Below are positions 49,968 to 64,000 of a DNA stretch of 64,000 bases, piece by piece. Source of the stretch: Verrucomicrobiota bacterium (GTDB lineage: Bacteria > Verrucomicrobiota > Verrucomicrobiia > Opitutales > Coraliomargaritaceae); contig JBCBZJ010000017.1 of NCBI GenBank assembly GCA_039815375.1, positions 9,425-73,424 on the forward strand, written 5' to 3'. The notes beneath the pieces are model-generated. The model was not told where the DNA came from, did not search any database, and saw only the letters and a program-made list of their open reading frames with translations. The translations under genes and the position numbers were made by a program. The stretch's first letter is position 1, and each line of letters starts with the position of its first letter.

Positions 49968-50330
49968 TCAGAATCGCACAACCAATTCATTGATTGCTTC
50001 GCAGTGATCCAAGCGCTGGATTTTATTCAGGATTTCACGTTTCCTGAACTGGAGCTCAGAGCGGAGCGTTTGATTTGTCACCGAAATGATAAGTGTTTGG
50101 CCATTTTTGATGCGAACCGGATTGCAGCGTCCAGCAATGTTTCCGAATACCTCGCCCCAGTTCTCGACCAAGCTTCGTTCCGGGCTTGGTTCTTCGAGCT
50201 TATATTGCCCCTGAAGAACAACCAGAAGATTGTCCAAAGGCACCGGATCCTTCCTCGAAGAAGAGGTGACGGTTCGAGGCAGTTCTCGAAAGTCGGCAAT
50301 AACATCCTCTACATTCTTCGAAAATTTCAT
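49968..50330 (-). CDS. DUF721/DciA family protein
   Basis: W..V.G.IA....P..I.....L.I.V.N...RSELQF....IL.KI pattern. Confidence 0.75.
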   Translation of the reverse strand: MKFSKNVEDVIADFRELPRTVTSSSRKDPVPLDNLLVVLQGQYKLEEPSPERSLVENWGEVFGNIAGRCNPVRIKNGQTLIISVTNQTLRSELQFRKREILNKIQRLDHCEAINELVVRF

Positions 50331-50449: not shown

Positions 50450-50472
50450 TACTACTTATTATAGTATAAATC

Positions 50473-50565
<93 letters not shown>

Positions 50566-50682
50566 AAATACAATACATAAGAGAATCTTATTCTAAGTAT
50601 AAGTAAAAGTAGATAGTGTAGTTGGTTGAGACTCTGTGCTTGCGGATAAAGATTTTTTACCTTTCTGTCTTATTCATCAACA

Positions 50683-50771
<89 letters not shown>

Positions 50772-51645
50772 TGCAGGTGTGAAGACTTCGTCCGTATCAA
50801 GTTTTTGAACGAATGTAGCGTGCGATGATAGTCGATAGATGTCCTATACTGACGGGGAGCGTCGTGATTAGGATACCCCGGAACTGGGTTTGGAGGCTAC
50901 GAAGGGCGGATTTGGAAATCTGGAACGGTAGCCTCGACTCTCGGAGTCGGGGAACGTTGGTTTGGCGCGCGAATCCCGAAACAGAGTTTCGAGGTTACAA
51001 AAAAATCGGGAATTGTCGCCTTGGCTCTAAGCGTGTGTCTAATAAATTGCTCAAAGCGTTACTTTACTTCTCATGTGTCTCGAAATCGCAGTCAGCGAAG
51101 CGGATGTAATAAATGAAGATGGCGTAGCAAATCGCCATCCAAATCGATCGCGACCTCGATTTGGATATCGACTTCGTCCACTTTGCCTTCGGAGGTTAAC
51201 CGTAACTGGATTTTATTGAACGTCCTTTTAGGCGAAAAGCCCACATCGCTGCCCATCAGAGCTGTAGTCAGGTATGATGATACGTTTCTTCGCTCTTCGG
51301 TTGCCGAGCACACTTCTCAGCCTATGGCATCATCCGGATTCAATGTGCCGCTGCAGTGTTTGGTCGGCGTTATGTTTTTCACTACTTGAATTCTTTGGTT
51401 GGAATCCGGTAGCAACCATCTGATTGAGCCGATTTTAACTACAGCTTTAAACTGCATCATGTGGGTTGGCTGTGTACTATTTTGACTAATCACTTGGGCA
51501 GAAATTTAGTGTAGCATCATCCATATCGAACTAAAAAAAGCCTGAAGTATACTTCCTGAAGTCTTGGTGCGTTTTCACGATATAGTCAAAATCGCTCATT
51601 TTCCTTACGGTAATAGTAGTCCTTAAAAACCATTCAGCGTTAGGC

Positions 51646-51886: not shown

Positions 51887-52822
51887 ATGCCCATATCTTC
51901 AGCAGAGAAAAATCCAACGACTAGTAAAGTTCTAGCATCGGCGAAAAGTGGGAAGTCATCGATTGTATCCAGTAATTGGATATCGGTGAACTGGCATATT
52001 ACGGAAGTTTGTAATTACCGTTGCCGTTTCTGTTTCGCGACTTTTGCCAATGCGCCGAAGGCAAGCCGTATTGGCGAAGAAGAAGGTTGGGCAATTATTG
52101 ACCGGCTCAAGGAGCTCGGTTGCCAAAAGCTGACTTTCGCCGGCGGGGAGCCACTCCTGCATCCGCATTTACATAGCTGGATCTGTCACGCCAAGAGCGT
52201 GGGCTTAACGACGATGCTCATCACAAACGGTCATTTCTGGAAGGAAGACACGGCAGACCGGTTCGCTGGCCGGTTGGATTGGGTCGGCCTGAGCGTAGAT
52301 GCATCCACACAAACACTCCAAAGTAGTCTGGGTCGGGGAAACTATGATCCGCTCACCCGTGCGGAATTCGTCAGCCGGACGGCCAAGACTAATGGGATAC
52401 GTTTCAAGCTAAACACCGTAGTGACCGCTTTAAATAAGGAAGACGATATGTCTCCTATTGTTGAAGCGTCCATGCCGGAGCGCTGGAAGATTTTTCAATA
52501 CCTGCCTGTTGAGGGTGAGCGGGTGGATCCTGAGCTTATTCTATCCGAGGCAGATTTTGCATTCTATGTTCAGCGTCATCGATACCTTGAAGAAATCGGC
52601 GTCTCCGTCGTGCCTGAGGACAATGACGCGATGACCGGATCTTACCGCATGTTGGACCCGTGGGGGCAGCCCTATGATAATCGCGAAACTGGCAGTGCTG
52701 GTAAGGCAGCCTATGGCAAACGAACTTACGGCGAGTCGTTACTCGATTCTTTGCCGGAGGAGAAAGAGCTCAACTTTAGTCTGGAGAAGCTACAGAAGCG
52801 CCGCGGCCTCTATCAGTGGTAG
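51887..52822 (+). CDS. Prokaryotic viperin (antiviral radical SAM, ddhNTP synthase family)
   Basis: SVNWHITEVCNYRCRFCF (N-aromatic-H-x4-CxxxCxxC-F), KLTFAGGEP, ITNG, LSVD, LGRG, FKLNTVV, RWKIFQ.L, PEDNDAM.GSY.MLDP.G, terminal KRRGLYQW. Confidence 0.92.
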   Translation: MPISSAEKNPTTSKVLASAKSGKSSIVSSNWISVNWHITEVCNYRCRFCFATFANAPKASRIGEEEGWAIIDRLKELGCQKLTFAGGEPLLHPHLHSWICHAKSVGLTTMLITNGHFWKEDTADRFAGRLDWVGLSVDASTQTLQSSLGRGNYDPLTRAEFVSRTAKTNGIRFKLNTVVTALNKEDDMSPIVEASMPERWKIFQYLPVEGERVDPELILSEADFAFYVQRHRYLEEIGVSVVPEDNDAMTGSYRMLDPWGQPYDNRETGSAGKAAYGKRTYGESLLDSLPEEKELNFSLEKLQKRRGLYQW

Positions 52823-52846
52823 AAAGTATTTATTTTATAAAAGCAT

Positions 52847-54007
52847 ATGAAAATCATCCAAAAGTTCACAATCGCAGCTTTTTGCCTCTCTTCGGTTTCG
52901 GCTGTTTTCGGTCAACGAAGTATGACGGTGACGACCGATGCAAATTCGGCAGCGTTATTTCGTTTATCAGGAAACCATCCTGTCGTTGAATTTGTCGAAG
53001 TCGATCCGGCAGCCGTCATTGAAATTACCGGAGTTGTGAACGGGTCCCCAATACGCCGTTTTGTCGATAATGATGCTACCCTTGCTTCGGGTAATTACTA
53101 CATCGAGTTCTTTACCATGGCGAAGTTGAATAACGGGGAGCTGCCTTTGCAGGTCTATTCTTCCCCGGTTGAGCTCACGTTGACCGCTCTGGAGGATAAG
53201 CCAAACCTCTTCCCGGATGATGACCTGTTCAACATAAGTTCTGAAGAAGAACGTGTGTTGGCTGTAGACCGTATCGCTGAGACCTACCTTGCTGATTCGG
53301 CTGCTCAGCAGATTGCAAAAGAGGCTGCTCGGGTGCCGCTTAGTTATCTAAAGGGCGAAGGCTTTGAGAAAAATGCCGATGGGACATCGCCTTACTTTCA
53401 TGAACTGATGTCGATCACGGCGGGACACCCTCAGTCCTACAAACTGAAGCCACGACTCAAGGTGATCGCTAAGCAGGTTGCCGAGGATACGTCTTCCAAG
53501 GAGCTGGAGATCGAAGCTTCTGTAGAGCTTCAAAAGGGGGCGCAGAAGCTACCGATTACGATTATGGGTAAGAATCAAACGCGGGATCTTGGCATTCCCT
53601 ATGCGAAGTTGCGGGATCTTGTTCAGGACATTGTCGCGCCACGCCTCTTTAACACGGGTAATGCGTATCCAGACCCAAATATGGATATTTACCGTTCGTT
53701 CCGTCTCCCTGGAGACACGCGCAAGGCAATCAGCCTAAATGATCTGGCGAAGGCAGTGGTTCGCAAGCTGAAGGTCAATGGAGTTAAAGCAGAAGATGTC
53801 TCCATCGAGGTGATCGCCTACAATGGCTACACGTGGAACTTCCGGTTCATTGATCCCGAGGTCTTCCTCATCGTGCCGAAGGTGCAGGTTGAGGACCCGC
53901 TGTTCTTAGCATGCACCAACAATGTCGATGCCGAAGGTGCCCCACTTAAAGATATTCCATTAGGCGTTTTCGGTGTGAAGTCCATTAACCTCATTTACAT
54001 CAAATGA
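52847..54007 (+). CDS. Secreted hypothetical protein (no recognisable domain)
   Basis: 386 aa ORF, signal peptide ending VFG/Q; 24 bp after viperin; ATGA overlap with the next gene. Confidence 0.8.
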   Translation: MKIIQKFTIAAFCLSSVSAVFGQRSMTVTTDANSAALFRLSGNHPVVEFVEVDPAAVIEITGVVNGSPIRRFVDNDATLASGNYYIEFFTMAKLNNGELPLQVYSSPVELTLTALEDKPNLFPDDDLFNISSEEERVLAVDRIAETYLADSAAQQIAKEAARVPLSYLKGEGFEKNADGTSPYFHELMSITAGHPQSYKLKPRLKVIAKQVAEDTSSKELEIEASVELQKGAQKLPITIMGKNQTRDLGIPYAKLRDLVQDIVAPRLFNTGNAYPDPNMDIYRSFRLPGDTRKAISLNDLAKAVVRKLKVNGVKAEDVSIEVIAYNGYTWNFRFIDPEVFLIVPKVQVEDPLFLACTNNVDAEGAPLKDIPLGVFGVKSINLIYIK

Positions 54008-56031
54008 TCGATTTGAAGCGTAGCGTTCAGTTGCTCTTATTCGGGGCAATGTCTATAGGCTGGGCTGTTGGCAGCACGGTCACAACCGTTCGTAGCAGCA
54101 CTTATGATGACGGGAGTGGCTCAACAAGCACCAACATGCTCAACTGGGTGAATACAAGTTATGGCACGTCACACACAACCCTGTCTGATGCGCTGAAAGA
54201 TGCTTTTATGACGGATAAGGGTGCTGCGTTGGGAACCTATCCAAATGCCTACAGCCATTCCAATACAACGATCAGTGCGACAAACTGGACACAGACTGAA
54301 TATCCAACCGGCACACACCCGACGAATCCTTATCTGACTGGTGAGACCGTTGTAAGCGAAGCTTTCTGGGGCGAAGCAAAGGATAGTGGCGGTAGCACTG
54401 CCGGCGGCGGTTTGCTTATTGGCATTTACACCCGTGTGGTTCAGGTCGGTGGAGGTTGTGGAGGTACCACTTATGAGACACGGACCTATAGCTATGTTGA
54501 ACGGGCTGATTTTAACAACTTCGATCTGGATATCGACGACTTACCGGATGAGTGGGAGGCGCAATACGGTCTGAATTACGATAGCTCCACGGGGGTAGAC
54601 GGGAAGTCCGGAGACTTTGATGGGGATAGCTTAAACAACTATACCGAGTACGTGATCAGCACCGACCCCAGTGTCGCTGGATCGACCACCGATACGAACA
54701 GCAATGGCTACAATGACAATTGGGAGGTCCAGTACTTTGGTGGATTAAATGCAAGCTATCCCAGCGATGGGGATGGCGACGGCCTGCTTATTGGAACCGA
54801 GTATGCGATCGGGACAGATCCTACGGTCGCGGATCCATCGACCGATACGGATTCGGACTCTCTGGAGGATAATTGGGAGATTCAGTATTTTGGCGATCTG
54901 GATGAGATCGGCACCGGTAACCCGGATAGCGATACCTACGACAACGAAACAGAGGAGACGAACGGCACAGATCCTACCGTATATGATGCTCCAGATCCCG
55001 ATACTGACAACGATAACCTAGCGGACGCATGGGAAATGCTTCATTTTGGTGATTTGGACGAGATCGGTACGGGTAATCCGGATGGTGATTCCTACGACAA
55101 TGAGACTGAGGAAACCAATGGAACGGACCCTCTCGTGTTTGATTCTACTAATCCTGACTCAGATAACGACGGCCTTTTGGATGCATGGGAGATTCAATAT
55201 TTTGGTGGCCTATCTGAAACGCCAACGGGTAATCCTGATAATGATCTTTACGATAATCAGACAGAACATGCTAACCAGACGGACCCTTCACAGTATGATC
55301 CGCCTCCGTTAAGTAGTCTGCCCGAGTTGGTGACGACTGTACGCAGCAGCATGTACGATGACGGAAGCGGCTCGACGACGACAAACCTGCTGAACTGGGT
55401 GAATACCCGCTACGGTACGTCTTACACGGTATTGGAAGAGGCGCTGAAGTTTGCATTCATGCTCGATAAGGGTGCATCGCTGGATCCGTATCCAAACGTG
55501 TATGCTTCGACCGATACAGTGATTACTTCCACTGATTGGAATCAGACGAATTATCCAACAGCTACACATCCCGCGAATCCTTATCTGGTCGGCGAGACTG
55601 TTGTCAGCGAAGCCTTCTGGGGTGAAGCAAAGGACGGTGCCGGAAATGTAGCGGGCGGTGGCCTGCTTATTGGGCTCTATACCGAGACGATTCTTGCAGG
55701 TGGTGGTTGCAACGGCCCAATCTATCAGACGAGGACCTACAGCTATGTTGAGAGAAGCGATTTCAACAATTTCGATCTGGATGGAGACGATTTGCCGGAT
55801 GAATGGGAAAGCCAGCACGGTCTATCCATAAATGACTCTAGTGGAGCAGGGGGCAAATACGGTGACTATGACCAGGATGGTATTGCAAACTACTTCGAGT
55901 ACATACTCGGGCTGTTGCCATCTATTGCGGATGACTACGCGACGTATGAGCATGCGATCTCCATTTTAAGTCCGAATCTGTTTATCGAGATTCTGACTCC
56001 GGCACCTTCAGAAATAATTTTGCTACCGTAA
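54004..56031 (+). CDS. Secreted protein with a duplicated unknown domain and thrombospondin type 3-like Ca-binding repeats
   Basis: Signal peptide; about 190 aa segment duplicated at 1251 nt offset; DxDxDxLxDxWExxYFG...DxDxYDNxxE...GTDP repeats. Confidence 0.85.
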   Translation: MIDLKRSVQLLLFGAMSIGWAVGSTVTTVRSSTYDDGSGSTSTNMLNWVNTSYGTSHTTLSDALKDAFMTDKGAALGTYPNAYSHSNTTISATNWTQTEYPTGTHPTNPYLTGETVVSEAFWGEAKDSGGSTAGGGLLIGIYTRVVQVGGGCGGTTYETRTYSYVERADFNNFDLDIDDLPDEWEAQYGLNYDSSTGVDGKSGDFDGDSLNNYTEYVISTDPSVAGSTTDTNSNGYNDNWEVQYFGGLNASYPSDGDGDGLLIGTEYAIGTDPTVADPSTDTDSDSLEDNWEIQYFGDLDEIGTGNPDSDTYDNETEETNGTDPTVYDAPDPDTDNDNLADAWEMLHFGDLDEIGTGNPDGDSYDNETEETNGTDPLVFDSTNPDSDNDGLLDAWEIQYFGGLSETPTGNPDNDLYDNQTEHANQTDPSQYDPPPLSSLPELVTTVRSSMYDDGSGSTTTNLLNWVNTRYGTSYTVLEEALKFAFMLDKGASLDPYPNVYASTDTVITSTDWNQTNYPTATHPANPYLVGETVVSEAFWGEAKDGAGNVAGGGLLIGLYTETILAGGGCNGPIYQTRTYSYVERSDFNNFDLDGDDLPDEWESQHGLSINDSSGAGGKYGDYDQDGIANYFEYILGLLPSIADDYATYEHAISILSPNLFIEILTPAPSEIILLP

Positions 56032-56039
56032 TTTTTAGA

Positions 56040-59000
56040 ATGCGAAAAGTATCCAATATCTTCTTATCCCTTGGCTGTAGCGCGGCCAGCTTGTGTGCCA
56101 TGCCGACGGTTGGCGATATCGACATCTATTCTGTCGATCAGTCACTTCTTCTGGGCGACACGGATATCGTGATGCACGGCACCGACATTCGTTTGGAGGT
56201 CAGTGCCACACCGGCTGCTGGCGAAACCATTGAGCGGGTCGAATTTTTTCGTTATGGAAGTTTTATCGGGGAAGGTGCTTTAGATACAAATGGCAATTGG
56301 TATCTTATAACCGAAGCAACTGCCCATACGTTTTCCCCATCGGACGAGCCATCGACTGTATTGATTGATGAGGATAAACTTAATGGTAGCTTCGAGGATT
56401 GGACAGGGACGATGCCTGATAACTGGCTTCGAGGAAATGGGGGTTACAATTCTCAATACGGATATATTCCACTGTTGCCTGTGACTAAGGTAACTACGGA
56501 TGCGCACACTGGTAATAATTCTGTCAAGATTACAGGTGTGCAGGATGCAACCTCTCCTGATGGAAACTATAACATGAAGAATTGGAGTAATGTCTGGTTG
56601 CTTAATTACATAGGCATGCAAACAGGCTCAAAATATAAGGTCGAATTTTACGCCAAACGTCTGAATGGCCTTGCCACTGACAGATTGCAGGTTGGTAAAG
56701 GCTATGGGCCTACATTTCATGATGATCTGGTCTATACGGAGACCGATGGGAGCTGGAAACATTACGAATTACACCCTGTTGAACCTTCTGCAGTCGGTAG
56801 CACTTACGGTCGTTTAGTCTTTACGTCGAGAAAAGGCGGTACGGAATGGCTGATTGACTCAGTTAAAGTGACTCTAACTCAGGATGTTCAGGACATCTAT
56901 TACGCGCGAGTCGTAGAGGATTCGGGAGATGTCGCGACTTCTGATTACGCTGGTGTGAAGACGCTTCCTTTTTCTGCATCGATTAACTTCCAAGCAGATA
57001 CTGCGAGTGTCCCTGATGGCTATGCTGCCGATTTTGGAGCGTTCTATGGAATTCAGGCAAACGGTCTCTCCTACGGGTGGCTCTATGAAGCCAATAACCA
57101 ACTGGTTGATGCTCCCCTTGCATCGGAGCCGATTCAAGAGCACAGTATCGGTTTCACTGTCGAAGATCAGATCATCAATCAGTGGGAGCTGGAGGTTCCT
57201 CCGGGTGAGTATCTTGTGACGATTCACTTCCCTGACAGCCAAAGTATTCCAGGCAGTGGCTATCGTTACTCACTCATGGTCGAGGATCAGGCTGCGATTA
57301 ACGGCTTTATTGAGGCAGGTGCTCCTATGGACTCTGCTATACAACGAGTGATTGTTACAGATGGTCGTTTGACGCTAAGCGCTGATGCGGCCAGTGATGC
57401 CAACTTGATTTCTGCTGTGGATATTATCCAGTTAAGTGCAAGTAGTGATAAATCGATATTCCGAAGAGGCCATAATACTACGAATGACTTCAAAAGTTCG
57501 GTTATCTCTCTGGATGGTCAACCAGGTTTACGTACCGTAGATTTGGATTTAATCGGCGATCAATCAGCGTTAAGGATGCATTATAGCGCATCTTCTAACG
57601 AGTACACGATTTATGCAGCTGACCCGGTCGTATCCTATGGAGCGGAGGGTGGGCCCTCGGAATTGCTTGCAGATATAAGCTACGATTTCGGGGTTTCTGC
57701 CGGTGATGTGTCTGCGTCTTTTAATGGCTACTTGCCTGAGGATGTGGCGTCACAGTCGAGTGCGGCTGTCCAAGCGCTGAAAGGTTTCTATTTGGTGGTT
57801 AAGAATCGCACAGATGGTAGCTTTATTGAGCGTATCCCTTTGGACTTACCGGATGTTGATTCTGCGGACTGGGTTACGTTGCTTACGAATGGCTCATGCA
57901 AAAAATTCACCAACAGCACATATGGTCTGACCACTTGGATTCGGCCGATGACGAGTAGCGAGTGGAACTATCAGGGCGCACCTGATTACATTGAGGACCT
58001 AAACTACACTTTCACTCACATGGCAGATGCAAATAGCGCCAACTATTTGTTCGTCATTGAAGCGGCTTCCAGCTTTCACGGGGAACCCGCCGTGCGTTAT
58101 GCCGGTGGGAATTACGATGGTCAGGCTACCTTAAACACTTTGTATGAATTTAGCTTTGACCGCGGGCAGCCATGGCGAATGCAGAATTTTACTTTGGCAC
58201 ATCGGGGCGAGCTGGCCCCGAGTGCATATCAGGGAACTGACCCGCGTGCCTTGTCGATGACTGAAGAGGCATTTTCCAGTGTAGAATATCATTTCCTCAA
58301 TGCTGCGGGCGGCAGTATTGGGCCTGCTCTTGATATGAATCTACAGTCTGATGTGGATACTTTTGAGTCTACTTTTTCCACGGTCGATCATGCCCCGGAG
58401 TTTCGAAGCCATCCCGTATTGGATCAATTGCTCTTGGATTACGGCAGCGATCCTCTGGCGCTTGCCCGTTATGTTTTCAATGAAATCGAAGTGATTGATT
58501 ACGTCGGCATGCATCCCGGCCTGTCGACCTCGAATATACCGGTAGAAGTCACGTTGGGCGGCTTGCGGCGTGATGCTCTGGCAGTTTTACAGGAGGGCGC
58601 CGGCAGCCCCCGTGAAATCTGCATCCTCCTGACCTACCTGCTTCGCGCTTCCGGTGTGCCGGCTGCGATCGCTGAGCCTTCGGACGGTCATGTTTACCTA
58701 TTGGATACAGACTACAGCCGACTAATCGGGCAGAACATTGCCGGCACCGCGCTTACGCCGGAAAAAATACCTTTGGAATACCCTTGGGTGGTAGCCTACA
58801 TCGAAGGCGAAGCAGAGCCCTTCAAGCACCTGTTCCCATGGATTAAGGAAACCGAGCTCACCGAGGGACATGACCTATATGACCTGCTTCCGGAGCGATT
58901 TGATAATGGCTTCAAGTATTTTGATAAATACATCCGTGCGGACGATGAGGTCATGCGGATTGGTAGTGATGGCCTCGTGGACCCGTTGGTCCGTGGTTAT

Positions 59001-62000
59001 GATGATGATCAGCCCTATGTTCTTTGGCCGGCACTCATCAAGGATCTCTTGAGCGAGAATGGAAGTGGAGTATCTTATGATGAGATTGGCGTTAGGAAAC
59101 ACAATCGACCACAACAATATACCGATTGGTGGGAGTTCCCGCGTCCGTTCCAAATTACCGGATCTGTCGCCCTGCATGACGATTACACCGTCGATCCTGA
59201 TAATTACGATACCGTCACCTATTATCTGGCGACCAGCGATAATCATGATGATACCATCGATATTACGAACAATCTGCTCTGGCAGTCGGAGCCGATTCCA
59301 TTAATGGACCTGCATAATCGATCCGTAAATATCGATTATTCATCCGGCAGCATCACGCTCTCGATTGCGCCTTACCTTCCCTACAGCGGACCGACGACCT
59401 ACAATACTTCAGCCTATCCTACCTTGGGAGATGTCGATTATGTGAGCCGCTCTAAGTTGGGTTATACCTATATTGTCAGTCATGCAGGAAATAGCGCGGA
59501 TTTTGGGGTCTTGGAGCATCGTCAGCGGTCTTACAAGACTGGGATGCAACAACAACAGAACCGCTTCTTTCAATATTACGGAAGTCAAAATTTTTGGAAT
59601 GCGCGGTATGTCTCTGGCAATATAAATGTTTATGACACATTCGGCGGTGGTGCGGAAGGAGTTCTCAGTATGAGCGCACGGCCAATCTCACCGGGCAATT
59701 ATGCCTCCGTCCATAATAGCGGGCGTGTCACCGATGCCATGTTGCGCACGCATACCAGTGCAATTGCTTATCACGAGCGTAATGTGATTAATCAGGGCTT
59801 GTCTGAGGATGCTACTGTGACCCAGCACCGGCTTTTTACCCTGTTGGGGCTGGCCTACTGGCAGAAGACCGTGGATTTTGAATTATTGGCTGCGGCAAAG
59901 CATAAGGTGATCATGCCTACAATGGGTGGTACGATGTTTTCCGGCCTTAACGCGAACGGCTCGGGTGATTTGGTATTCCCTTTTATCGATGTCGCAAATC
60001 TAGTAACCTCAGCTTACTGGGGTGGGCATATAAATCTGGCGCATGGTCATGATTCCAGGACGACCTTTTTAGATCTTTATTATCTATTTTCTGCTCAAGA
60101 CTCTGCTTACGAGCATGCTGTACTTCGAAATCTTCTTGGTGTCGAAGGAGAATATTCGACAGTAAAGGTATTGCAGGAAGCCAGCCGGCGTCATCGTGCG
60201 GATCCTCAAAATGTGCCGGACATTGTGCTCCTGTCCAATGGGCCAAACACCAATGGCAACGACTGGCTTCAGGAAGGCGAAGTATTCTACCAGGGGCAGA
60301 AGCTAAAAGAGTGGGATGCAGGACTCTGGGGTAAGGTTGAAAACCTGTTGGATGCGAATTCGAACCTGATCCATACTTCAGGATTAGCTTTAGGCCTACC
60401 AGAGCACCTTAGAGACGACAGCTTTGAATTGGCATACATTTCCCCGGGCCCGGTAAGTATCAATGGCGTCGGACGGATGGGAGTCGCGACGCTGCAGCAC
60501 TCCGGCGGAGCGGGGATGTATATTAGTAGTTCCAGTAGCCCCCTGAATGGCGGCGGTAGCAACGAACTCGATGGTGCGGATGAACCGGGTTTCCTTAGTA
60601 GGCTCGCGAGTAAGGTTGCTGCTATCATCAATTCTACATCTAGTTCGGAGGGGGTCCAGCATACGCCAGCACCGGATGGAACAACAACGACCGTTTGGGT
60701 TGGCGGTCAGCCTGTTGTTGAGCTCCCTGTTGAGGAAGCCCGTGAGCTTACAAATGCTCTCTCCTCTCTGGCCCCGGCCGATGCAGAATTGGTTGGGATG
60801 GCTTATGTCGGGAGCAGACTTGCCGGCGATAGCCCTTCGGAAGCCTTTGATCATGGGCTAACGGTGCTTGCGAACTCACCTTTTTCAAGCCAGTCCATAT
60901 ATGCATCAACCAGTGATTCTGGTGCTTTGAGTGTTACAGTGGGTGAAATTCCACTGTTCACTGATGGCGCGAACAGTTTGGTAGGAGACCCGGTTAATAT
61001 TATAGACGGTTACTTCTATATCGATACAACCGATATCAGCTTGCCTGGGCCGTTCCCGCTTACACTTCGCCGAAATTACGTCAGCCAAAATCTGGCGGAC
61101 AACCAACTAGGTGCAGGTTGGAAATTCGGCTTTATGCATTATCTTCAGTTTATAGAGGAGAATAGTGACCCCGAAGCACTTATTTATGCAGCGGAAATGG
61201 ACGGGTCGGTTTTGGCTTACGAGAAAGACCTGAATAATTCAGACCGTTGGAATGTCACGATTTCTGCGAATCCCAGCTTGAGTAATCATTCGGAGAGCGG
61301 TGTGGGCTCTCTCGCGAATCGATATGGAAATTACATCGAAAGAGTCGGGGATCGCTACACCCTTTACTCGAACTCAGGCGAAGTGCGCATCTACGATATG
61401 GATGAGTATCCAATTGGAGGTTTAGTGGATCGCCGACGCCCTTATCTACAGTCGTGGTCGGATGCCTCAGGCAACAATTTCGCATTCAGTTATATCGAAG
61501 ATTCAGATGCATTTGGTTATGGAGACTTGTATCAGATCAAGTCTTCGAACGGGAATGCAGTCACTTTTTCCTACGGTGATAATCATCGGCCAAGCATGAT
61601 TGCTACGCATGATGGTCGTATCTTACGTTATTACTACGACCAATTTGGCGATTTACGTCGAGTCACCTTACCGGATGGCTACGAGATTCGCTATACTTAT
61701 CAATTAGCTCTGGATCAGAATGGTGACGATATCTCCACTCACCTGTTGATCCGCGAGGAAAAGCCGCTTGGACGGGTCTTAGAAAATGATTATGATGGTG
61801 ATCGGCGAGTTCTGAGACAACGTGCAACGGTCGGTGAGAGTAACGCACTTATTGAAAATGCATCTTATGCGTATCATCATACGCACGCGAGTGGTGATGC
61901 TGCGACAGGATATACCCTGGTTACGGCTGTAAATGGAGGCGTCACGCGCTACGATTACACGGACGGCTTAATCACATCGATCACTGATGCAGAGACGAAT

Positions 62001-64000
62001 CAGATTCAAAAAGAGTGGTATGCGGATCGCTTAACATTTCCCGATCCGGCTGCAGCACCTGACGCTTCGCGTGTGATTGCCGAGACGACAGTTGCCAGCC
62101 TGACCGAAGACGAGCCGGGTGGATTTGGGCGCAGCTTGAAACGAACGAAAGACAAGCGGGGGCGTGTCACATACTTCTGGTATGATGCAGATGGGAATAT
62201 CGTGCAGACAAAGACGATCGGTGAGATTGACGGGGACCTGAGTAATGGAGATGAAGTTGCGACTTCGACCAGCACCTACAATGACAAGCATCTCCCAACG
62301 GATCTTGTCGACCCGGTTGGTAATATGACTAGGATTGCGTATGGCGATACCGACTACCCATACATGCCAACATCCATAGAGCAAAGGGATTCCAGCGACG
62401 CTCTCATTTCCCGAACAGAACGTGCTTACACCGAGGTAGAGACTGCTTCCGCTTCCGCTTTCGGCTTAAATTCTACAGTGCGTCAGGCAGTTGGCACCGA
62501 TGATGAGAGCTTTGTCCTTACCGAATATTCAGAGCATGGTTTCCCTCTTCGGGTGACGCAGTATACCGATGAGGATGATCTCAATAATGTAACGAGCGAT
62601 CCGAATGTTGTCCTCGAATATATTTATAATATCCGTGGCAGACTCATTCAAGAATCCGATAGCAGTGGTGCCAGAACCACTTACCAGTACGATCCAATGG
62701 ACCGTTTAACTGCTGTGCGTGCCTATGACGAAAATGATGTCCTGCTTTCAACCAACTTTAATTATTATAACGCTGCAGGCGACTTGGAGTGGAATGACGG
62801 TCCCCGGACAGGTGTTGAGGATCATACCTATAGGCGTTACGACGGAGCAGGTCGCTTGCTCCAGCAACTCGTCTGGCGGTCGCAGGCGAGCACTGATGGA
62901 ACTGGAGTCGAAGCCTTTCCTCAGTATTTGGATGAAGCCTTTGCGGTGGAACAGTATTCCTATGACGGCTTTGGCAACTTAACCGGGGTCATCGATCCGA
63001 ATGGCCACGAGATGCGGATGAGTTATGATATGATTGGCCGCAAGCTCAGTCAGAGCAGCTACGAAGGTGCCTATGCCGATGGTGCCGAGCCGCTGTCCTC
63101 CCTCGCTTGGACTTATGAATCAGGCGGCAAGGTGCATACATCGACAAATACTTTGGGAGGGGTTACAGAGAATCTCTATACCGATCTAGGTGCTCTGCGC
63201 TCAAAACAAAATCCGGACGGAACGATTTCTCAATTCCGTTACCTTTTAGATGGGCGTATTACTAAAGAAATTTACCCTTCCGGAAACGAGCTCCGTTATG
63301 CATATGATGACTTGGCGCGAACCGTAACGCGGACACTTCACAAAAACACTGGTGAACAACTCAGTCAGACAATCCAGTATTTTGATCGTCGCGGGAATCC
63401 AATCCAGGAAATCGATGCCGAGGGTTATGTGCGCCAGTCAACTTTTGACGATTTGAACCGGGTGGTCGCCCGTAGTGGTCCAGCCGGTGATGGTGTGGGC
63501 ACGGAACAGCAGTTGAGTCATGCCTCGTATGACCCAAATCTGCGAACCGTGACGATCACGGATGCCAGCCTGCAGTCCGTTGCAACAACGAACGATGCCC
63601 TTGGGCGTGCGATTTCAACCGTCGTTCGTGATTCGCAAAGTAATATCGTTCAGGAAACTTATTTTGATTACTCTACCGACCACCATAGTGTGACTCGTAC
63701 TGAAGGAAGTGGCGCAGATGCCATTCAGGTAACGACCTGGACCAACACACAGGGGCAGCCCGTCCTGATCCAGCATCATCTGGATACTGGAGGTTATGAC
63801 TTCGAACGCCTCGCTTATGATCTGTCTGGAAACCAAACCATGACAGTGGATGCGCTTGGCTACCAAACTGAGCGTATTTATGACGGGCTCAACCGCATGG
63901 TTGCAAATACACGCCCTGATGGTGCAACCACAGAGTTTCGCTACATTGATCAGGGAGAGGTGATCCGGCGAGTGATGCCAGGCGGGTTGACCCATGAGGA
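56040..64000 (+). CDS. Giant secreted RHS/YD-repeat protein (Ig-like, two carbohydrate-binding-like domains, transglutaminase-like, DUF6531, RHS); 3' partial
   Basis: ATG at 56040 (MRKVSNIFLSLGCSAASLCA). The frame reads open wherever I translated it, and its absence from the ORF track implies no stop before 64000. LLTYLLRASGVPA at ~58630; VGDPVNIIDG...LRRNY...LGAGW at 60981; YD repeats (YYYDQFGDL, YQYDPMDRL, YDGAGRL, YDGLNRM) from ~61450. Confidence 0.9.
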   Translation, partial: MRKVSNIFLSLGCSAASLCAMPTVGDIDIYSVDQSLLLGDTDIVMHGTDIRLEVSATPAAGETIERVEFFRYGSFIGEGALDTNGNWYLITEATAHTFSPSDEPSTVLIDEDKLNGSFEDWTGTMPDNWLRGNGGYNSQYGYIPLLPVTKVTTDAHTGNNSVKITGVQDATSPDGNYNMKNWSNVWLLNYIGMQTGSKYKVEFYAKRLNGLATDRLQVGKGYGPTFHDDLVYTETDGSWKHYELHPVEPSAVGSTYGRLVFTSRKGGTEWLIDSVKVTLTQDVQDIYYARVVEDSGDVATSDYAGVKTLPFSASINFQADTASVPDGYAADFGAFYGIQANGLSYGWLYEANNQLVDAPLASEPIQEHSIGFTVEDQIINQWELEVPPGEYLVTIHFPDSQSIPGSGYRYSLMVEDQAAINGFIEAGAPMDSAIQRVIVTDGRLTLSADAASDANLISAVDIIQLSASSDKSIFRRGHNTTNDFKSSVISLDGQPGLRTVDLDLIGDQSALRMHYSASSNEYTIYAADPVVSYGAEGGPSELLADISYDFGVSAGDVSASFNGYLPEDVASQSSAAVQALKGFYLVVKNRTDGSFIERIPLDLPDVDSADWVTLLTNGSCKKFTNSTYGLTTWIRPMTSSEWNYQGAPDYIEDLNYTFTHMADANSANYLFVIEAASSFHGEPAVRYAGGNYDGQATLNTLYEFSFDRGQPWRMQNFTLAHRGELAPSAYQGTDPRALSMTEEAFSSVEYHFLNAAGGSIGPALDMNLQSDVDTFESTFSTVDHAPEFRSHPVLDQLLLDYGSDPLALARYVFNEIEVIDYVGMHPGLSTSNIPVEVTLGGLRRDALAVLQEGAGSPREICILLTYLLRASGVPAAIAEPSDGHVYLLDTDYSRLIGQNIAGTALTPEKIPLEYPWVVAYIEGEAEPFKHLFPWIKETELTEGHDLYDLLPERFDNGFKYFDKYIRADDEVMRIGSDGLVDPLVRGYDDDQPYVLWPALIKDLLSENGSGVSYDEIGVRKHNRPQQYTDWWEFPRPFQITGSVALHDDYTVDPDNYDTVTYYLATSDNHDDTIDITNNLLWQSEPIPLMDLHNRSVNIDYSSGSITLSIAPYLPYSGPTTYNTSAYPTLGDVDYVSRSKLGYTYIVSHAGNSADFGVLEHRQRSYKTGMQQQQNRFFQYYGSQNFWNARYVSGNINVYDTFGGGAEGVLSMSARPISPGNYASVHNSGRVTDAMLRTHTSAIAYHERNVINQGLSEDATVTQHRLFTLLGLAYWQKTVDFELLAAAKHKVIMPTMGGTMFSGLNANGSGDLVFPFIDVANLVTSAYWGGHINLAHGHDSRTTFLDLYYLFSAQDSAYEHAVLRNLLGVEGEYSTVKVLQEASRRHRADPQNVPDIVLLSNGPNTNGNDWLQEGEVFYQGQKLKEWDAGLWGKVENLLDANSNLIHTSGLALGLPEHLRDDSFELAYISPGPVSINGVGRMGVATLQHSGGAGMYISSSSSPLNGGGSNELDGADEPGFLSRLASKVAAIINSTSSSEGVQHTPAPDGTTTTVWVGGQPVVELPVEEARELTNALSSLAPADAELVGMAYVGSRLAGDSPSEAFDHGLTVLANSPFSSQSIYASTSDSGALSVTVGEIPLFTDGANSLVGDPVNIIDGYFYIDTTDISLPGPFPLTLRRNYVSQNLADNQLGAGWKFGFMHYLQFIEENSDPEALIYAAEMDGSVLAYEKDLNNSDRWNVTISANPSLSNHSESGVGSLANRYGNYIERVGDRYTLYSNSGEVRIYDMDEYPIGGLVDRRRPYLQSWSDASGNNFAFSYIEDSDAFGYGDLYQIKSSNGNAVTFSYGDNHRPSMIATHDGRILRYYYDQFGDLRRVTLPDGYEIRYTYQLALDQNGDDISTHLLIREEKPLGRVLENDYDGDRRVLRQRATVGESNALIENASYAYHHTHASGDAATGYTLVTAVNGGVTRYDYTDGLITSITDAETNQIQKEWYADRLTFPDPAAAPDASRVIAETTVASLTEDEPGGFGRSLKRTKDKRGRVTYFWYDADGNIVQTKTIGEIDGDLSNGDEVATSTSTYNDKHLPTDLVDPVGNMTRIAYGDTDYPYMPTSIEQRDSSDALISRTERAYTEVETASASAFGLNSTVRQAVGTDDESFVLTEYSEHGFPLRVTQYTDEDDLNNVTSDPNVVLEYIYNIRGRLIQESDSSGARTTYQYDPMDRLTAVRAYDENDVLLSTNFNYYNAAGDLEWNDGPRTGVEDHTYRRYDGAGRLLQQLVWRSQASTDGTGVEAFPQYLDEAFAVEQYSYDGFGNLTGVIDPNGHEMRMSYDMIGRKLSQSSYEGAYADGAEPLSSLAWTYESGGKVHTSTNTLGGVTENLYTDLGALRSKQNPDGTISQFRYLLDGRITKEIYPSGNELRYAYDDLARTVTRTLHKNTGEQLSQTIQYFDRRGNPIQEIDAEGYVRQSTFDDLNRVVARSGPAGDGVGTEQQLSHASYDPNLRTVTITDASLQSVATTNDALGRAISTVVRDSQSNIVQETYFDYSTDHHSVTRTEGSGADAIQVTTWTNTQGQPVLIQHHLDTGGYDFERLAYDLSGNQTMTVDALGYQTERIYDGLNRMVANTRPDGATTEFRYIDQGEVIRRVMPGGLTHE

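Follow-up and report, generated by a model that had tools for sequence, protein, structure and literature searches.

A stretch of 64,000 nucleotides from a Verrucomicrobiota bacterium of the Coraliomargaritaceae (contig JBCBZJ010000017.1, positions 9,425 to 73,424 of the forward strand; in our numbering G000:C49:9425-73424, G000 being the source genome and C49 the contig), hereafter the window, carries a prokaryotic viperin gene followed by genes for a 386-amino-acid (aa) exported protein, a 675-aa repeat protein and an RHS protein. The explanation that we favour, with moderate confidence, is that the viperin and the 386-aa protein, a predicted PruR-like binder, constitute a module inserted in front of an RHS cassette that is itself common. 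The likely partner of the viperin is the 386-aa binder and not the toxin, because the pair occurs twice in the genome and related RHS cassettes are without a viperin. The features concerned are as follows.

51887..52822, plus strand: prokaryotic viperin, 311 aa, a radical S-adenosylmethionine (SAM) protein without signal peptide
52847..54007, plus strand: 386-aa exported protein with a hydrophobic N-terminus, a beta domain (residues 24-117), a helical middle and a C-terminal SUOX/PruR-like domain
53537..54001, plus strand: predicted Cys-less sulfite-oxidase/PruR pterin-binding-like domain of the 386-aa protein (residues 231-385; A-Y-N-G-Y at 324-328)
54004..56031, plus strand: exported repeat protein of the DxDxDG/TSP3 type, 675 aa, containing an orphan domain in two copies
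56040..64000, plus strand: signal-peptide RHS protein of the polymorphic-toxin type, more than 2653 aa, open at the contig end

The pair recurs on contig C10 of the same genome, where a second viperin, 73% identical to that of the window, is directly followed by a paralogue of the 386-aa protein (30% identity). The stop of the one gene and the start of the other overlap by 7 bp, and the paralogue is cut by the contig end. Genes for a cupin and a TonB-type receptor lie upstream, at a site unrelated to dciA, which flanks the inserted block of the window, and contig depth is alike at both pairs (9.9 vs 10.7). Fourfold-degenerate sites are identical at only 33% (n = 95) and 25% (n = 51), with both frames intact as far as read, so that the split of the two pairs is old; with synonymous sites this close to saturation, a recent duplication of the pair was rejected. 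The two viperins are sisters (99/99) in a small clade with P0005, whereas their 386-aa partners belong to different subgroups (P0001 with P0002; P0024 with P0025 and P0038). Judged from these trees, such a pattern would result either from a long linkage with unequal rates or from the viperin having been copied or converted later, and, with identical tracts of 26, 26 and 23 nt between the two viperins, partial gene conversion may have taken place. Matching of contig ends gave no continuation of C10 or C49. An earlier note on this DNA, made from the letters alone, had reasoned that a viperin unlinked in related RHS loci would make the adjacency a chance insertion. This holds for the link to RHS but does not follow in full, since the viperin/386-aa link recurs at a second, unrelated site.

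The same note had proposed that the viperin is co-regulated with the RHS apparatus or repurposed for it, and that homologous RHS loci be searched for an upstream viperin. A query of residues 770-1400 of the RHS protein matched 15 of 401 genomes of the order, G000 included, and 15 loci were taken from the 14 other RHS-positive genomes; one (L069) is without upstream DNA, and the other 14 show approximately 1.6-18.5 kb of it. No viperin and no 386-aa homologue was found by profile search in any of these 14 readable loci, the 14 other RHS-positive genomes are all without a viperin match, and the window-type RHS is absent from the three other viperin-positive genomes of the order. In 13 of the 14 loci (10 by regular expression, 3 by eye) the gene directly upstream of RHS encodes a DxDxDG-type protein; the 675-aa gene and RHS are thus an ordinary, widespread cassette. 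The source genome itself has three more complete RHS loci (C31, C9 and C62), each with different upstream genes, and two fragments (C43 and C44), none with a viperin. The proposed tie to RHS was therefore not borne out. What survives of the idea that the viperin is joined to an exported apparatus is its unusual, tightly coupled exported neighbour, the 386-aa protein, but RHS is not that partner.

The 386-aa protein had been read as a secreted orphan. Its export is upheld by the hydrophobic N-terminus, which simple hydropathy finds in 7/7 family members checked, while the orphan status is not, as a rare family was found: a profile search over 1.84 billion representatives gave 10 matches, 2 of them from the source genome itself, and a word search added P0002 (62% identity). 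All 10 profile matches are at most 386 aa long and none is a fusion of viperin and 386-aa protein, a possibility that was thereby rejected. A model from 11 sequences (predicted local distance difference test (pLDDT) 83.6, predicted template-modelling score (pTM) 0.82) replaced an earlier 3-sequence model with a pLDDT of 51.8. In VIA-align, residues 231-385 of this model matched PruR of V. cholerae (7kp2) with a Z of 10.9 and a root-mean-square deviation of 2.9 over 123 aligned residues, followed by K. pneumoniae PruR (7rkb, Z 8.8) and then SUOX enzymes, and the Atlas model matches the PF00174 cluster (template-modelling score (TM) 0.58). For the N-terminal domain, the matches were to beta-barrels and no better than middling (Z ≤ 7.1). 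By sequence, PDB and Pfam searches with the family returned no match, nor did profile comparisons against individual SUOX sequences reach significance. Cysteines are present only at positions 13 and 356 and none is in the hairpin, so that the Cys which binds the molybdenum cofactor (Moco) is lacking. The C-terminal domain is thus predicted by the model to be a PruR/SUOX fold without the molybdenum-binding Cys.

In PruR, as described in PMC11194511 and PMC13259868, the pterin ring is stacked between Y104 and W160, with N102 taking part, and the Moco Cys is likewise lacking. The family motif A-Y/F-N-G/D-Y (324-328) lines up by eye with A-L-N-D-Y of PruR, whereby N326 and Y328 match N102 and Y104; F375 probably stands in for W160. 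Set against the PruR-DcpA system (7kp2, 7rkb and 7kos; PMC11194511), the likeness consists of the predicted SUOX-type fold without Moco Cys, the export and the Asn/Tyr motif. Unlike the approximately 170-aa, single-domain PruR, the 386-aa protein has two extra N-terminal domains, three in all; its family alignment is without the PW motif; no DcpA-type gene follows, a DxDxDG protein taking that place; and a viperin precedes it. No GGDEF protein match was found in the genome, so that the classical PruR-DcpA route is unavailable and such signalling was rejected. The 386-aa protein is predicted from its model to work like a PruR-type binder, but the label PruR is withheld given the absence of the PW motif and of a GGDEF protein. 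Elsewhere, a small exported PruR-like gene (L084:1300-1851) was observed within a cluster for molybdenum cofactor and molybdate transport in genome G058.

The identification of the first gene as a viperin was confirmed by NCBIfam NF038283 (236.8 bits vs a cut-off of 180) and PADLOC pVip (E 4.5e-69), and its top PDB sequence matches are all viperins, the solved relatives being 9dfu, 6b4c, 7n7i and 6q2p. The CxxxCxxC motif is at residues 42-49 (C42/C46/C49) and the C-terminus is YQW. In an 11-sequence alignment, which was aligned to solved viperins, C42/C46/C49, K174/N176, R199/K201, E244, Y253 and Y309-W311 are invariant; K174/N176, R199/K201, E244 and Y253 are presumably the substrate-site motifs. 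An annotation as MoaA was rejected (61 bits vs a cut-off of 284; Cys only at 42, 46, 49, 79 and 100), and the true moaA and moaC of the genome are on C14. There is a likeness to MoaA with molybdopterin-binding proteins, in that a radical-SAM nucleotide enzyme adjoins a SUOX-fold gene, as seen in the Moco cluster of G058, but the window enzyme, with no Cys after residue 100, is without the C-terminal auxiliary-cluster cysteines. Compared with known prokaryotic viperins (pVips), the protein scores above the family cut-off and shares the radical-SAM motif, the substrate-site motifs and the C-terminal aromatic tail. It differs in belonging to a small separate clade (P0003/P0004/P0005, support 100/98), in a beta-8 insertion of about 10 aa with Arg at the Lys319-like position, and in being coupled to an exported PruR-like gene with no other defence gene visible beside it.

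The beta-8 loop contains Asn264 and Arg279 with the insertion of about 10 aa between them. On alignment to 9dfw, whose loop we take to be of the mouse type, Asn264 is at the Cys314 position and Arg279 at the Lys319 position. According to the preprint 10.1101/2023.09.13.557418, Asn marks a promiscuous pocket and an added Lys at the second position confers pyrimidine selectivity. Read against that paper, the combination of Asn264 and Arg279 makes a preference for pyrimidines possible but uncertain. As had been noted before, no kinase is in view and none of the three downstream genes has a PADLOC match; both viperin loci run to contig ends, and the defence-island context was read only that far. 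In the same preprint, a kinase adjoins 12% of bacterial viperins and 88% are without one, so that a missing kinase is the usual state.

In the favoured explanation, the accessory insertion would consist of two joined modules, namely the viperin/386-aa pair and, after it, the repeat-protein/RHS cassette. Bernheim et al. reportedly found antiviral activity of prokaryotic viperins; the cytoplasmic viperin is likely to convert nucleoside triphosphates (NTPs) to chain-terminating 3'-deoxy-3',4'-didehydro-NTPs (ddhNTPs) against phage. Its exported partner would be a non-catalytic binder in which Tyr328 and an aromatic residue sandwich a small heterocycle, with a pterin as the first candidate ligand on account of the fold and a released ddh-nucleoside as the second on account of the gene linkage. 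Delivery of an interbacterial toxin, independently of the viperin pair, is the likely role of the RHS cassette, which may be co-transcribed by read-through without being a dedicated partner.

The gene arrangement described earlier, four co-oriented genes whose successive junctions are a 24-bp gap, a 4-bp overlap (ATGA) and an 8-bp gap, with no obvious terminator between them, was reproduced from the open reading frames, and no terminator-like site is present in the spacers. Scanning gave 7 promoter-like sites (9.0 +/- 3.3 expected) and 9 terminator-like sites (5.8 +/- 2.5 expected), both at chance level. A 12,594-bp Logan contig covers 51296-63889 with 1 letter different, so that the gene junctions are not a mis-assembly, which was thus ruled out for the locus. 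The Logan run (recorded as a marine metagenome) is probably the source sample, and therefore it serves as a check of the assembly and not as an independent occurrence. The next Logan contig, from 63860 on, is at double depth, suggesting that a second near-identical RHS core, either an orphan cassette or a paralogue, is probably present and unassembled. As the window stops at the contig end, the toxin tip and the immunity gene of its RHS protein are beyond reach.

To the left of the viperin, the window contains the following.

49968..50330, minus strand: dciA (Pfam DciA, E 2.4e-11), left flank of the inserted block
50466..51340, no strand assigned: intergenic repeats without Rfam match

Two hairpin units about 210 bp apart (50524-50561 and 50732-50769) are situated between dciA and the viperin, and a multi-copy element resembling repetitive extragenic palindromes (REP) or miniature inverted-repeat transposable elements (MITE) at about 50850-51340 has copies on more than 15 other contigs. 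Of 8 same-genus genomes, 5 were checked; in all 5 a Lon-N/dnaK region comes after dciA and the block is missing, indicating that the block from viperin to RHS is a lineage-specific insertion.

TSP3_bac repeats were found in the 675-aa protein, in agreement with its first description as a repeat protein. The two copies of its orphan domain, each of about 160 aa (54067-54560 and 55330-55820), share about 70% DNA identity; for this domain no Pfam match and no homologue was found. The DxDxDG proteins that precede this RHS family (window 55900-56031, L059-L073) mostly end in a shared hydrophobic strand and Pro. This C-terminus resembles the opening strand of bacterial Ig domains and may be a sorting or strand-donation signal. 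The fourth gene is indeed RHS (RHS_repeat E 4.5e-30, DUF6531 and YD repeats), its product comprising a weak Ig-like part, a weak CBM-like part, a transglutaminase-like domain, DUF6531 and the YD repeats. Pro occupies the position expected, by motif, for the catalytic Cys of the transglutaminase-like domain. On the C9 contig, RHS ends in Tox-SHH, and on C31 in a weak Colicin-DNase/WHH match followed by a DUF4272 gene; both are nuclease tips of the HNH type. IS200/RAYT-like transposases adjoin RHS tips on C31, on C44 and in the metagenomic locus L038. A signal peptide, an inactive transglutaminase and RHS make up a polymorphic-toxin architecture described by Zhang et al. 2012 (PMC3482391, in its section 19). 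The likeness to the RHS toxins of that section extends from the signal peptide through the Ig-like part and the Cys-less transglutaminase-like domain to the RHS/YD repeats, while the viperin pair upstream is unique to the window copy, whose tip and immunity gene are not assembled.

Several observations weigh against a viperin/386-aa module. The pairing was seen in one genome only, and its two copies are not independent, given their shared ancestry; sequence downstream of the C10 copy is lacking. By prediction, the viperin and the 386-aa protein reside in different compartments. With regard to the fold, Foldseek alone gives a weak match to PruR (E 2.2e-3) and no family member reaches Pfam PF00174 by sequence. 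Four other readable loci of the 386-aa family, all 5'-truncated, are without a viperin, and none of 21 viperins with E ≤ 1e-60 (our own threshold, which leaves weaker viperins outside the list) is on a contig of a length recorded for other family members (23364, 9844 and 7995 bp), which hints weakly that a close viperin need not accompany the family. A family remnant near an RHS tip in L038 suggests that the family may frequent RHS neighbourhoods.

Outside the source genome the family is scarce. A metagenome scan with query A1 found none, and one with query A5 found 2 loci (L038 and L039) of a single remnant, which has a DxDxDG remnant on one side and an IS200-type transposase on the other, some 2.2 kb away from an RHS tip and with no viperin. 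Among 400 genomes of the order one (G086) was positive, with two 386-aa pieces at contig starts and a best viperin-profile match (E 2e-15) below viperin level. The family was absent from 60 relatives, 400 phylum genomes, 80 relatives of G086 and 100 family genomes, and was not found in plasmids or phages. Two distant members, P0025 and P0029, have the same longest contig of 23,364 bp and so may share one contig. Patterns for the viperin clade gave 3 distant loci (30-34% identity) in genome contigs and none in viral contigs. In two Oxalobacteraceae (L035:7019-10888 and L037:7031-10888), a viperin was observed to be divergent from a gene of about 910 aa, with ankyrin repeats in L035; in G019 and G010 a related gene, likewise uncharacterised, comes after the viperin.

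The strongest rival to the viperin/386-aa module, which we regard as appreciably less probable though far from negligible, is that a stand-alone antiviral viperin landed before an unrelated exported gene, the two genes, functionally unconnected, then being copied or acquired twice as a block. The restriction of the pair to one genome and the lack of a close viperin on contigs sized like those of other family members are in line with such hitch-hiking. So is the company kept by other viperins: the viperin family matches 4 of the 401 order genomes, G000 included, and in the other three the viperin adjoins restriction, RES, helicase or integrase-like genes, mobile or defence regions with different neighbours. 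The viperin of Glaesserella australis (L036:9983-15375), which precedes an RTX toxin operon by about 0.8 kb and is a further example of a viperin next to genes for secreted toxins, would fit as well. Against it, the spacing of the pair (24 bp and -7 bp) was kept while synonymous sites approached saturation, the viperin precedes two deeply split partner subgroups, and the pair is found at two unrelated insertion sites.

It is also conceivable, if improbable in our estimate, that a ddh-nucleotide is dephosphorylated, released and bound outside the cytoplasm by the PruR-like protein, which would sense infection of the same cell or of its neighbours, or serve to recover the nucleoside. A tight, repeated linkage of a nucleotide-modifying enzyme with a heterocycle-binding fold would be explained in this way, PruR holds its ligand by the ring system alone, placed between two aromatic residues (PMC11194511), and the PruR-DcpA route is closed in this genome. 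No transducer, transporter or phosphatase gene is present in either locus as far as read, however, and the predicted pyrimidine preference suits a bicyclic-pterin pocket poorly. Taken further, this would amount to a two-gene system not described before: on leaving the infected cell, the ddh-nucleoside would be captured by a dedicated extracytoplasmic receptor and so act as a bacterial danger signal, placed here ahead of a contact toxin. To this reading we assign an equally slim chance.

Least probable of all, and very doubtful, is the earlier proposal of a four-gene system in which the viperin serves RHS-mediated antagonism or adhesion: the tight co-oriented spacing without terminators, the fact that relatives lack the block in its entirety at this site, the family remnant near the RHS tip in L038 and the unread DNA downstream of the C10 pair would accommodate it, yet the mutual exclusion of viperin and window-type RHS among the other order genomes, the 14 readable loci with neither viperin nor 386-aa homologue and the different upstream genes of the other RHS loci in the genome speak against it.

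No description of a viperin-RHS linkage was found in the literature searched, and this linkage appears local and of little weight. Nor was a description found of a viperin paired with an exported PruR-like protein, although subscription papers and preprint supplements, which were outside the search, may bear on it. Nucleotide kinases are the main genetic partners known for viperins (10.1101/2023.09.13.557418). If the viperin/386-aa module is real, an exported small-molecule binder would be a new kind of viperin partner, pointing to ddh-nucleosides or pterins acting outside the cytoplasm during phage defence, and the 386-aa proteins define a rare, unnamed multi-domain PruR-like family.

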